From a virus (taxonomy: Duplodnaviria > Heunggongvirae > Uroviricota > Caudoviricetes), in the IMG/VR virus record IMGVR_UViG_2563366884_000001, positions 1-40,816 of that record: a DNA stretch of 40,816 bases, one strand, 5' to 3'. The notes below the pieces were generated by a model, which was given only the letters and a program-made list of their open reading frames with translations, made no database searches and had not been told where the DNA came from. Each line of letters begins with the position of its first letter. Within the stretch, counting starts at the first letter, position 1. A program made the translations under genes and the position numbers. Below are positions 35,434 to 40,816 of this stretch, in pieces.

Positions 35434-38379
35434 ATGACAGACATTACAGCCAATGTTGTAGTGAGTATGCCTTCGCAACTCTTCACTATGGCGCGTTCTT
35501 TTAAAGCCGTAGCCAATGGCAAAATTTATATCGGTAAAATTGACACTGACCCGGTAAATCCTGAAAACCAGATTCAGGTTTATGTAGAGAACGAAGACGG
35601 TTCTCACATTCCTGTTTCGCAACCAATAATCATTAACGCTGCTGGATATCCGGTATATAACGGACAGATTGCCAAATTCGTTACCGTGCAAGGCCATTCT
35701 ATGGCTGTTTATGATGCGTATGGTGCGCAGCAGTTCTATTTTCCTAATGTGCTGAAGTATGATCCTGATCAGTTACGGCAGCAATTAGAAGACCCAGATG
35801 GAGCGAATAAATACCCAAAACTTCAGATAGCAAGATGGAGAGACAGTTATGATGTAAGAGGTTGGGGGGCTATTGGTGATGGTGTTCATGATGACACATC
35901 AGCTCTATCAGAATTACTTTCTGTTGCAACAGGTGGTGAAAAGATAGATGGGCGAGGGCTTACTTTTAAAGTATCAACTCTTCCAGATGTCAGTCGATTT
36001 AAAAATGCTCGTTTTTTATTTGAGAGAATACCGGGTCAGCCTCTTTTTTATGCTTCTGAAGATTTTATCCAGGGAGAGTTATTTAAAATTACAGATACAC
36101 CGTGGTACAACGCCTGGACGCAGGATAAAACGTTTGTATATGACAATGTCATCTATGCGCCTTTTATGGCTGGAGACCGCCATGGTGTAAATAACCTCCA
36201 TGTTGCATGGGTTCGCTCAGGAGATGACGGGAAGACCTGGACAACGCCGGAATGGCTTACAGATTTACATGAAAACTATCCCACAGTTAACTATCACTGC
36301 ATGAGTATGGGGGTTGTCAGAAATCGCCTTTTTGCTGTAATTGAGACGCGGACCGTGAGCGGAAATAAACTGCAGGTTGCAGAGTTGTGGGATCGCCCAA
36401 TGAGTCGCAGCCTTCGCGTTTATGGTGGTATAACGAAAGCAGCAAATCAGCAAGTCGCTTATATTCGCATTACTGATCACGGATTATTTGCTGGTGATTT
36501 TGTCAACTTCTCAAACTCTGGTGTTACAGGTGTTACCGGGAATATGACGGTGACTACTGTTATTGATAAAAATACTTTTACAGTTACGACGCAAAATACC
36601 CAGGATGTGGATCAGAATAACGAGGGTAGATACTGGAGTTTTGGTACATCATTTCACTCGTCACCATGGAGAAAAACCAGTCTTGGAACTATTCCTTCTT
36701 TTGTTGACGGAAGCACTCCTGTTACTGAGATTCACAGTTTTGCGACGATTAGCGATAACAGTTTTGCTGTTGGCTACCATAATGGTGATATTGATCCACG
36801 CGAGCTTGGGATACTCTATTTCTCTGATGCTTTCGGTTCTCCTGGTAGCTTTGTTCGCAGACGCATACCTGCAGAATATGAGGCGAATGCATCTGAGCCA
36901 TGTGTAAAATATTATGATGGCATTCTGTATCTGACGACCAGGGGGACATTAAGTACTCAACCCGGTAGTTCATTGCACAGAAGCTCTGATTTAGGTACAT
37001 CATGGAATTCTCTTCGCTTCCCAAATAATGTTCATCACTCAAACCTTCCTTTTGCCAAAGTTGGCGATGAGCTGATTATTTTTGGCAGTGAGCGCGCATT
37101 TGGTGAGTGGGAAGGAGGAGAACCTGATAACCGTTATGCAGGAAATTATCCAAGAACATTTATGACCAGAGTTAACGTCAATGAGTGGAGTCTGGATAAT
37201 GTAGAGTGGGTTAATGTTACTGATCAGATTTATCAGGGCGGAATAGTTAACTCTGCGGTTGGTGTTGGTTCAGTTTGTATCAAAGACAACTGGCTGTACT
37301 ACATTTTCGGTGGGGAAGACTTTCTAAACCCATGGAGCATAGGGGATAACAACAGAAAATATCCTTATGTTCACGATGGTCACCCGGCTGATTTGTATTG
37401 TTTCAGGGTGAAAATTAAACAGGAAGAATTTGTTTCAAGGGATTTTGTCTACGGAGCCACTCCTAACAGAACGCTTCCTACTTTTATGTCGACGTCAGGC
37501 GTGAGGACGGTTCCTGTACCCGTTGATTTCACAGATGATGTTGCCGTCCAGTCACTGACTGTCCATGCAGGTACATCAGGACAAGTTCGCGCGGAAGTCA
37601 AACTTGAGGGTAATTACGCCATTATTGCGAAGAAAGTACCGTCTGATGATGTTACCGCTCAGAGATTAATCGTTAGCGGAGGTGAAACAACGTCTTCAGC
37701 AGATGGTGCAATGATAACGTTGCATGGTTCCGGAAGCAGTACTCCACGTCGCGCGGTATATAACGCACTCGAACATCTTTTTGAGAACGGAGATGTTAAA
37801 CCTTATCTTGATAATGTAAATGCTCTTGGTGGTCCGGGAAACAGGTTCTCGACAGTTTATCTTGGCTCCAATCCTGTGATTACCAGTGACGGAACATTAA
37901 AGACAGAGCCGGTCTCTCCTGACGAAGCATTGCTGGATGCCTGGGGTGACGTCAGGTATATCGCTTATAAATGGCTGAACGCTGTCGCTATAAAGGGGGA
38001 AGAAGGGGCGAGGATACATCATGGTGTAATCGCGCAGCAACTTCGTGATGTTCTTATTTCTCACGGACTCATGGAAGAAGAAAGCACAACATGCCGCTAT
38101 GCCTTTCTTTGCTATGACGATTATCCCGCAGTATATGATGACGTCATTACTGGCCAAAGGGAAATGCCGCTGACTGATAATGACGGGAGCATCATTGTTG
38201 ATGAGGATGATAATCCAGTGATGGTAATGGAAGACATCATTGAGCGCGTTGAAATAACGCCAGCAGGATCTAGATGGGGGGTCAGACCTGATCTCTTATT
38301 CTATATCGAGGCGGCATGGCAGCGCAGAGAAATAGAAAGAATAAAAGCTAGGTTAGACTTAATAGAAGGGAAGCACTAA
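35434..38379 (+). CDS. Tailspike: P22-type N-terminal head-binding domain fused to Asp-box sialidase-like beta-propeller and C-terminal intramolecular-chaperone-like domain (981 aa); putative K1 endosialidase
   Basis: N-terminus [47 protein letters not shown]… matches the P22 tailspike head-binding domain; Asp boxes SGDDGKTW and SSDLGTSW; long C-terminal extension. Confidence 0.75.
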
Positions 38380-38995: not shown

Positions 38996-39010
38996 GCTTT
39001 TTTATACTAA
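38996..39010. repeat. attR: attR core GCTTTTTTATACTAA, preceded by a lambda-like P arm (~38850..38995)
   Basis: Second exact copy of the 15-bp core; the upstream P arm contains Int arm-type sites (AGGTCACTAA, CATAGTGACTGG). Confidence 0.9.
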
Positions 39011-39100
39011 CTTGAGCGAAACGGGAAGGTAAAAAGACAAAAAGTTGTTTTTAATACCTTTAAGTGATACCAGATGGCATTGCGCCATCTGGCAGAGTGA

Positions 39101-39577
39101 TTAACTAAACATCGCAGTAATCGAGGCACTCGCCAGAGAGTGAAAATGAACGTTAAACCCGACCATCGCGCCGCTGGCACCTTCATCGACATCAATACGT
39201 TCTACATCCAGCGCGTGAACGGTAAAAATGTAGCGATGGGTTTCGCCTTTCGGCGGCGCTGCGCCATCGTACCCGGTTTTACCAAAGTCGGTACGCGTCT
39301 GCAAAACGCCGTCTGGCATAGCTACCAGACCAGAGCCAAACCCTTGCGGTAATACGCGGGTATCAGCGGGTAAATTAACAACTACCCAGTGCCACCAGCC
39401 GGAGCCGGTTGGCGCATCCGGGTCATAGCAGGTGACAACAAAACTTTTCGTTCCCGCAGGAACATCATCCCACGCCAGATGCGGTGAAATATTATCGCCA
39501 TCGTAACCCATGCCGTTAAAGACATGACGATGCGGCAGCTTATCGCCATCGCGCAGATCGTTACTGATGAGTTTCAT
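39101..39577 (-). CDS. ybhB: YbhB, PEBP-family protein (host gene flanking lambda attB)
   Basis: 158-aa ORF matching E. coli YbhB as I recall it; position on the far side of the att core from ybhC. Confidence 0.85.
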   Translation of the reverse strand: MKLISNDLRDGDKLPHRHVFNGMGYDGDNISPHLAWDDVPAGTKSFVVTCYDPDAPTGSGWWHWVVVNLPADTRVLPQGFGSGLVAMPDGVLQTRTDFGKTGYDGAAPPKGETHRYIFTVHALDVERIDVDEGASGAMVGFNVHFHSLASASITAMFS

Positions 39578-39685
39578 TAGAATGCCTCCGGGAAACCTCG
39601 GCCTTCAGACCGGGGAGGAAAGGAGGCGGTTTTCCGACTAACTGTACTTTGCATAATCACATTTTCCTCTTTAGTATGTGAACAC

Positions 39686-40816
39686 ATGAAACGCGCATAT
39701 AAATACCGGTTTTACCCGACAACTGAGCAGGCTGAGCTTTTAGCTCAGACGTTTGGCTGTGTGCGCTTCGTCTACAATTCCATCCTTCGTTGGCGTACCG
39801 ATGCGTACTACGAGCGAAAAGAAAAGATCGGTTATCTACAGGCCAACGCTCGCCTTACGGCGCTCAAAAAAGAGCCTGAATACATATGGCTGAATGATGT
39901 TTCCTGCGTTCCCCTCCAGCAGTCGTTGCGCCACCAACAAGCCGCCTTTGCTAACTTCTTTGCCGGACGAGCTGCATATCCGGCTTTCAAAAGCAAACGG
40001 CACAAACAGGTGGCTGAGTTCACTGCCAGCGCGTTTAAACACCGTGACGGCGAGTTGTATATAGCAAAGAGCAAGTCGCCGCTGGATGTTCGCTGGAGTC
40101 GAGAATTACCATCTGCGCCGTCAACCGTTACCATTTCCAGAGATAGCGCTGGCAGGTACTTTGTTTCCTGCCTGTGTGAGTTTGAACCTGTATCAATGCC
40201 TGTTACCGCTAAAACGGTCGGCATTGATGTGGGCTTAAAAGATTTATTCGTCACCGATACCGGATTCAAAACCGACAATCCCCGCCACACCGCTAAATAT
40301 GCGAAGCGATTAACGCTGCTACAGCGACGTTTAAGCAGGAAGCAAAAAGGCTCAAGAAACCGAATTAAAGCCCGCTTAAAGGTCGCCCGACTCCACGCGA
40401 AAATCGCCGATTGCCGGATGGACAATCTGCACAAGTTGTCCCGCAAACTGATTAACGAAAACCAAGTTGTTTGCGTCGAATCCCTCAAGGTGAAAAACAT
40501 GATCCGCAACCCGAAGCTGTCTAAAGCAATAGCTGACGCAGGCTGGAGCGAACTTGTTCGCCAGCTCCAGTACAAAGGCAAATGGGCCGGGCGGTCAGTG
40601 GTCGCCATTGACCAGTATTTACCGTCCTCAAAATGCTGTAGTTGCTGCGGTTTCACCATGCAAAAAATGCCTCTTAATGTTCGTAAATGGCACTGCCCTG
40701 AATGCGGCGCAGACCATGATCGCGACATTAACGCGGCACGTAATATTAAAGCTGCCGGGCTGGCAGTGTTAGCCCACGGAGAGCCTGTAAACCCTGAATC
40801 GCAGCACGCGGCTTAG
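39686..40816 (+). CDS. tnpB: TnpB (IS200/IS605 OrfB-family RNA-guided nuclease-like protein), 376 aa, no tnpA partner in window
   Basis: Typical OrfB N-terminus (MKRAYKYRFYPT…), RuvC-like acidic residues and C-terminal zinc finger (CxxC…CxxC); stop codon is the last three bases of the window. Confidence 0.8.
   Translation: MKRAYKYRFYPTTEQAELLAQTFGCVRFVYNSILRWRTDAYYERKEKIGYLQANARLTALKKEPEYIWLNDVSCVPLQQSLRHQQAAFANFFAGRAAYPAFKSKRHKQVAEFTASAFKHRDGELYIAKSKSPLDVRWSRELPSAPSTVTISRDSAGRYFVSCLCEFEPVSMPVTAKTVGIDVGLKDLFVTDTGFKTDNPRHTAKYAKRLTLLQRRLSRKQKGSRNRIKARLKVARLHAKIADCRMDNLHKLSRKLINENQVVCVESLKVKNMIRNPKLSKAIADAGWSELVRQLQYKGKWAGRSVVAIDQYLPSSKCCSCCGFTMQKMPLNVRKWHCPECGADHDRDINAARNIKAAGLAVLAHGEPVNPESQHAA

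Follow-up and report, generated by a model that had tools for sequence, protein, structure and literature searches.

TnpB elements are the ancestors of Cas12. Among the described systems closest to the locus analyzed here is ISDra2 of Deinococcus radiodurans, whose 408-aa TnpB (PDB 8EXA, 8BF8, 8H1J) has a RuvC triad and a zinc finger. ISDra2 carries its own tnpA, uses TTGAT as its TAM, ends on the right in TCAA and has an RNA scaffold that overlaps the 3' end of tnpB. [quoted passage not shown] 2023). TldR proteins, from the Enterobacteriaceae, are nuclease-dead, TnpB-derived repressors; their guide RNA is encoded at the 3' end, and they are fixed beside host genes. According to the literature, ~75% of tnpB genes are without a nearby tnpA. 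One tnpA-less element, ISEc42, is catalogued for E. coli as a member of the IS1341 group with no OrfA, a length of 1294-1295 bp, an OrfB of 376 aa and cleavage sites TCAT on the left and TCAA on the right; 165 copies were counted in 164 of 2467 genomes (PMC9956272, Genes 2023;14:523, Table S1). Mobile-element finders routinely report ISEc42 from B2 lineages, where it shares a contig with mdfA.

The window (the whole stretch of DNA that was analyzed, 40,816 nt) ends with a tnpB gene at 39686-40816 on the plus strand, 376 codons from an ATG to a TAG stop at 40814-40816, the final bases of the window. An earlier reading made from the sequence only had described a complete 376-aa TnpB ORF about 110 bp past ybhB that ends at the last base of the window, and had named frameshifts or lost RuvC residues as the marks of a pseudogene. 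The ORF is as described, with a measured gap of 108 nt. Because the frame contains no frameshifts and no internal stops and the RuvC residues are kept, tnpB is not a pseudogene. The Pfam families HTH_OrfB_IS605, OrfB_IS605 and Cas12f1-like_TNB all scored far over their curated cut-offs in the 376-aa protein, which matched ISDra2 TnpB (8BF8/8EXA/8H1J) with E = 9e-75 and whole-length homology (residues 3-369). In the alignment, D181 (codon 40226-40228), E265 (40478-40480) and D347 (40724-40726, all plus strand) paired with the catalytic D191, E278 and D361 of ISDra2 TnpB, and C318, C321, C337 and C340 were identified as the zinc-finger cysteines. The two proteins differ in the C-terminal tail, which is shorter in the window TnpB (376 compared to 408 aa). 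RefSeq labels the protein 'RNA-guided endonuclease InsQ/TnpB family protein'. Comparison with 18 relatives gave dN/dS values of 0.07-0.15; ratios this low indicate strong purifying selection across the TnpB family.

A promoter scan found no strong sigma-70 promoter upstream of tnpB, and a Shine-Dalgarno sequence is absent before the tnpB ATG (39660-39685). An AT-rich, -10-like box (TAGTAT) ends ~8 nt upstream of the ATG and is also present in close relatives; the full arrangement TTGCAT-17-TAGTAT fell below the criteria of the scan. Together, the -10-like box and the missing Shine-Dalgarno sequence are a hint that the tnpB mRNA is leaderless or poorly translated. Scanning for sigma-70 promoters and terminators returned one promoter-like site (minus strand, facing ybhB) and two terminator-like sites, all at chance frequency, and an outward promoter is not claimed, as such sites are no commoner than chance.

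The gene upstream of the element is ybhB (39101-39577, minus strand; Pfam PBP, E = 3e-42), so named in RefSeq genomes. The target or TAM, 5'-TTCAT with the core TCAT (39573-39577, plus strand), lies directly 5' of the element, and the ATG of ybhB (39575-39577, minus strand) sits within the complement of this target. The LE occupies 39578-39685 on the plus strand (108 nt). Its boundary was set by comparison with strains that lack the element, a check that the sequence-only reading had proposed: relative to the empty sites of K-12 and the B2 strain UM146, the first base of the element is exactly 39578, the position from which the sequence-only reading had begun its feature, and the junction is seamless. 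In both empty sites the junction is ...gagtttcat/gaaccctcctttcttg and reads tttcat/gaaccctcc. The occupied left junction is ...gagtttcat/tagaatgcctcc... and reads tttcat/tagaatgcc, and the occupied right junction, in strain PAR, is ...gagccgtcaa/gagccctcctttcttg. The same reading had also suggested extending the sequence downstream, and the identical copy of the element in strain PAR (L001) places the right end, GTCAA, 52 nt past the end of the window. The expected sequence beyond the window is thus gttcggcttgttgaagtgggaatccccgtcattcagggcggggagccgtcaa, followed by gagccctcctttcttg and then the bioA stop. The insertion is 1291 bp long, seamless, and lies between ybhB and bioA, antisense to both genes. 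Gene order is ybhC, ybhB, tnpB, bioA in strain PAR and ybhC, ybhB, bioA in K-12, in which bioA and ybhB are 58 nt apart and the junction on the gene strand reads aggagggttcATG. Across 32 aligned insertions TCAT was invariant and no other position was conserved, and a search for an extended target motif around the 32 sites found nothing beyond TCAT.

A TTCAT sequence on the left with GTCAA on the right, in an element that has neither inverted repeats nor a target duplication, is the signature of the 'peel-and-paste' elements of the IS200/IS605 family. The window element was inserted seamlessly 3' of a 4-5 nt target, with no terminal inverted repeats and no target duplication; it has subterminal imperfect hairpins at both ends and a conserved right cleavage tetranucleotide; its protein has HTH, OrfB_IS605 (RuvC) and zinc-ribbon domains; and no Y1 or serine transposase gene lies inside it, the LE being only 108 nt and the RE 52 nt. 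These are the features of the IS1341 group. Those of a TnpB nuclease are likewise present: an intact RuvC D-E-D triad and an omega RNA scaffold, predicted as described below, that overlaps the 3' end of tnpB and the RE and is followed by a flank-derived guide. The evidence supports a complete, intact tnpB of the IS200/IS605 family without tnpA. This is what the sequence-only reading had called it, and one refinement is that the element already has a name. Compared with the catalogue entry for ISEc42, the host species, the tnpB-only layout, the 376-aa OrfB, the TCAT and TCAA cleavage sites and the figure of about one copy per carrier genome are all the same, and the length is 1291 bp, or 1295 bp with the TCAT counted. 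No difference was detected in this comparison, which is one of published descriptors only. Since all of these descriptors match, we filed the element as ISEc42, a name that rests on them. The feature in the window is very probably an end-truncated view of ISEc42, a 1291-bp, non-autonomous, tnpB-only IS (IS200/IS605, IS1341 group) between ybhB and bioA.

In the LE, comparative analysis placed an outer stem (GCCTCC at 39584-39589 with GGAGGC at 39622-39627, plus strand) around an inner hairpin (CCTCGG at 39596-39601 with CCGGGG at 39610-39615, plus strand). The same order was seen in 30 relatives: the target motif, ~13 nt, and then the outer stem enclosing an inner hairpin of the form CCTCGnCC-loop-GGnCGGGG. 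The arms of the outer stem are GCCTCC/GGAGGC here and GCGCG/CGCGC or CGCC/GGCG in other subgroups. In the alignment of the 30 relatives, compensatory changes were found in six of the nine predicted pairs. The RE hairpin closely resembles that of the LE (tCCCCGtca-ttcagg-gCGGGGa, followed by ~5 nt and TCAA), and as helix 8 of the scaffold it had double-sided changes in 5 of 9 pairs. Of the relatives examined, nearly all lost homology at GTCAA; a few had GCCAA or GTCAG instead. Single-sequence DNA folding was not significantly better than that of shuffled sequences for either end (z = -0.33 for the LE and z = -1.22 for the RE), so support for the hairpins is comparative. The earlier suggestion that imperfect palindromes upstream of tnpB form a left-end hairpin was therefore borne out by covariation in the 30 relatives, although not by the folding score of the single sequence.

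To define the RNA, the terminal 170 nt of 25 relatives, counted back from the right end, were aligned and analyzed with RNAalifold. The consensus scaffold has 37 pairs, 19 of which show changes on both sides. Pairing was possible in 96.2% of cells, compared to 39-48% when the partners were slid by one to three columns, and the observed covariation was not equalled in any of 500 column shuffles. These results support a conserved, structured RNA scaffold, the predicted omega RNA. The 5' part of the scaffold lies at ~40751-40816 on the plus strand and overlaps the 3' end of tnpB. Helix 3 (40751-40767) and helix 7 (40800-40810, both plus strand) are wholly within the tnpB coding region and the window. 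Helices 4-6 have their 5' arms inside the window. Beyond its end lie the terminal hairpin, the 3' arms of helices 4 and 5 and the last base of the 3' arm of helix 6. In total, the scaffold spans the last ~65 nt of tnpB and the right end, the last 52 nt being beyond the window. The sequence-only reading had put any guide RNA outside the window altogether; this holds for the guide and for the last 52 nt, while the scaffold itself starts inside, at ~40751. An Rfam scan of the window element and the full copy gave chance-level matches only, and no Rfam family covers the scaffold.

The sequences of the relatives diverge exactly after GTCAA, and the flank-derived guide, GAGCCCTCCTTTCTTG..., lies beyond the window on the bioA side. 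At guide position 3, carriers have G (L001 7870-7872) whereas both empty sites that were read have A (K-12 and UM146; L085 171-173 and L002 2410-2412). Consequently, the native guide would mismatch the empty alleles of K-12 and UM146 in the TAM-proximal seed. It would still match its own excision product. None of the uninterrupted ybhB-bioA junctions in 5071 E. coli genomes was an exact match to the reconstructed empty site; the closest reached 99.3%, with one mismatch in 140 nt, which in UM146 falls on guide position 3.

By analogy with ISDra2 and the Geobacillus work, TnpB would bind the omega RNA, with a guide made up of 16-20 nt of the bioA-side flank, GAGCCCTCCTTTCTTG. The complex would be expected to cut TTCAT followed by GAGCCCTCCTTTCTTG, which is the scarless joint left by excision, and repair by recombination from a sister copy would then restore the element after the cut. 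Movement would require a Y1 TnpA in trans, and none is encoded in the window.

The absence of such a gene upstream of tnpB had been pointed out in the sequence-only reading. An IS200 TnpA sequence, first confirmed as Pfam Y1_Tnp at 131 bits, was used as a phmmer query against all six-frame ORFs, and no Y1 transposase was found anywhere in the window at E<=10. Clustering of neighbor ORFs at the 79 loci from the genome collection revealed no recurrent partner beside the tnpB relatives. Across all collected loci, Y1-like ORFs were present only at L059, L080 and L040, three unrelated or rearranged loci. The lack of a Y1 gene beside nearly all relatives fits the literature figure for tnpA-less tnpB genes. 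The ORF in L080 (2494-2935, plus strand; Endozoicomonadaceae), which is Y1 transposase-like and 147 aa long, immediately precedes a 5'-truncated tnpB relative and may encode the cognate TnpA of that family branch.

Positions 39000-40816 were 100% identical in many complete E. coli chromosomes. A search of complete E. coli genomes found the ybhB and tnpB stretch whole in 342 of 5426, once per genome (median one copy) and at this locus. With the element alone as the query, 346 chromosomal and 43 plasmid places were found, and the identity was at least 99% in 333 genomes. The carriers include Nissle 1917, 536, E2348/69, ABU 83972 and ATCC 25922, all five of them B2-type strains. More widely, ~160 loci with TnpB relatives (55-100% protein identity) were collected from genome and metagenome collections; their hosts are Enterobacterales, Zobellella, Pseudomonas, Endozoicomonas and others. 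Copies that were 99.6-99.8% identical occupied different loci in one Serratia-like metagenome, and copy pairs of 98.6-98.7% identity were found within single Serratia and Pseudomonas genomes. On the evidence of these near-identical copies, the family has recently transposed in other genera. A 1.5-kb contig labeled as an uncultured Sutterella MAG (L006) carries a copy 99% identical to the E. coli element with a premature stop (292 codons) and is probably E. coli DNA that was mis-binned.

The single fixed site in E. coli must be set beside the catalogue of autonomous IS605-group elements in this species, which cleave at TTAT, TTAG or CCAT and in no case at TCAT (PMC9956272). With one site and no catalogued TCAT partner, ISEc42 in E. 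coli is most likely structurally competent but stranded. The G. stearothermophilus elements belong to another TnpB clade in another host, and the E. coli element is present as one copy with no obvious partner transposase.

The same facts could also describe an inert fossil, the product of one insertion in a B2 ancestor, for which E. coli has never possessed a matching TnpA and whose ORF is intact only for want of time to decay, with TnpB and its RNA idle. One copy per genome at one locus, the mismatch between the catalogued cleavage sites and TCAT, and the guide mismatch to the closest empty sites at seed position 3 are all as expected of such a relic. Decayed alleles do occur: tnpB is frameshifted in E. 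coli strain 33E (L005 3109-4225), and early stops are found in copies from Klebsiella, Providencia, Pseudomonas and Endozoicomonas (L011, L021, L023, L030, L050), pseudogenes that show, at the level of sequence, decay ongoing in parts of the family. However, the window element retains two intact ends, an intact RNA scaffold and every catalytic residue, 333 copies are at least 99% identical and have an annotated open reading frame, and the family combines strong purifying selection with the recent transposition in other genera recorded by the 99.6-99.8% identical copies. We consider an inert relic unlikely, if far from negligible, and the question bears on present activity and not on the identity of ISEc42.

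A second alternative is domestication, in which TnpB would serve as a nuclease-dead, TldR-like RNA-guided repressor or as another host-adopted regulator of the bio-ybhB region. The element resembles TldR loci in its fixed, single-copy position beside host genes, and its guide is complementary to the bioA-ybhB intergenic region. It differs from them in keeping the catalytic residues and the transposon ends; with the nuclease triad and both ends intact, it is not a TldR, and TldR-like domestication was rejected on that ground. Against host adoption of any kind, the RuvC D/E/D triad, the ends and the TAM are all preserved, close relatives are found at dozens of unrelated loci and in multiple copies elsewhere, and most E. 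coli genomes are without the element. We regard domestication as very improbable.

The window also contains a ~37.7-kb prophage bracketed by two exact copies of the lambda att core GCTTTTTTATACTAA (1331-1345 and 38996-39010). The prophage is integrated at attB between ybhC and ybhB, which is why ybhB looks 'isolated' in the window. Its 981-aa tailspike (35434-38379, plus strand) has a P22-type head-binding domain, endosialidase domains and an S74 chaperone; this domain content points to a P22-like prophage specific for the K1 capsule, and hence to a K1 host. That the element is cargo or a scar of this prophage, 570 bp from whose attR core it lies, is scarcely credible and was rejected, since the prophage ends at the att core at 38996-39010, before ybhB, the empty-site comparison confines the insertion to 39578 onward, and the identical element is found in strain PAR (L001), where ybhC and ybhB are not separated by a prophage.

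The position of ISEc42 against the start codon of ybhB has a consequence for that gene. The insertion parts ybhB from its native RBS, AGGAGGG, which is now 1.3 kb off on the far side of the element. LE sequence (GGAGGCATTCTA-ATG) takes its place, and a GGAGG (39585-39589, minus strand) lies 7 nt upstream of the ybhB ATG. A similar arrangement was found in a relative on P1-like phage-plasmids, which has 81.6% nucleotide identity, a 376-aa TnpB and a distribution of 43 E. coli plasmids (L003 3891-5185, pE6474.2, and 42 others). This element lies precisely at the junction of prt (portal) and the head-processing gene pro, against the start codon of pro, and when it was deleted in silico the resulting junction was 100% identical to phage P1/P7 over 160 nt. 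In pL9-1 (L004), the P1-type copy is 5'-truncated by a resistance-gene region.

We examined every relative with a TCAT left target and placeable ends, a sample of 34 independent sites. At 29 of the 34, an opposite-strand ORF begins with the ATG that is complementary to the TAM (window 39573-39589; L003, L008-L011, L015, L017, L020, L025, L026, L029, L030, L064, L065, L077, L105, L110, L112, L113, L115, L119, L120, L122-L124, L127, L131, L134). The abutting ORFs are at least 116 codons long in 25 cases; the other four run off short contigs, and three of these have N-termini resembling PanB, TauD and a LysR-type regulator. All nine flanking ORFs that were tested belong to bona fide Pfam families, among them NAD kinase, TauD, GST, cation efflux protein, GntR and MFS, with the domain starting within residues 1-32 and, in eight of the nine, from profile position 1-3. 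As a null we used the remaining TCAT sites of these loci as reconstructed (n = 1250), which were divided into 968 intragenic, 240 intergenic-like and 42 start-like sites. The observed start-like fraction was 85%, compared to ~15% expected among non-disruptive TCAT sites (binomial P ~1e-18, from a rough null).

Many of these start codons are internal to operons (15 of the 23 positives with enough flank). The same-strand upstream ORF ends -8 to +77 nt from the ATG, and four sites are ATGA stop/start overlaps. At the ATGA overlaps the TCAA of the right end, TTGA on the gene strand, recreates a TGA stop in frame, and the upstream protein is altered by at most its final residue. The termini of the ISEc42 clade thus appear to suit a start-codon position, with a TTGA stop for the upstream gene and, in the enteric subgroup, a GGAGG before the ATG. 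The GGAGG in the LE is restricted to that subgroup. The Zobellella/Pseudomonas subgroup has GCGCG arms yet sits at start codons, which means that the RBS cannot be the whole explanation. Among the near-identical Serratia-like copies, three of four were already at start codons, which counts against a slow purging of insertions elsewhere. Orientation relative to the replication strand was mixed among the Endozoicomonas MAG copies.

The sister subfamilies with TTAT or TTAC targets cannot strike an ATG. Several of their copies were seen on, or a few nt after, an opposite-strand TAA stop (L019, L037, L057; also L012, L018, L021, L040). Across the family, the TAMs coincide with gene 'punctuation' on the other strand (ATGA, ATAA, GTAA).

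No described start-codon preference for IS605/IS1341 elements was found in the searchable literature, and nothing relevant was found there for TnpB together with ybhB. We advance tentatively, as a serious possibility that falls short of even, that the near-exclusive siting of the ISEc42 clade against an opposite-strand ATG, often in operons, is a genuine and previously undescribed target-site rule. The pattern could arise if translation-start regions are actively targeted, for instance by way of accessible single-stranded DNA. It could also arise from strong selection for a 'seamless' niche at operon junctions.

The tnpB-only element itself is already known, as a named and catalogued IS whose protein is already labeled an RNA-guided endonuclease by NCBI PGAP; what might be new is confined to the siting of the ISEc42 clade at start codons and operon junctions. 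B2 strains carry one TnpB, apparently intact, whose TAM (TTCAT) and native guide are known, and are a convenient natural system in which to ask whether a stranded TnpB is expressed and active. If the start-codon association reflects target choice, TnpA-mediated integration would read more than a 4-nt motif, and this would bear on how the ancestors of Cas12 can survive in compact genomes while sparing the genes.
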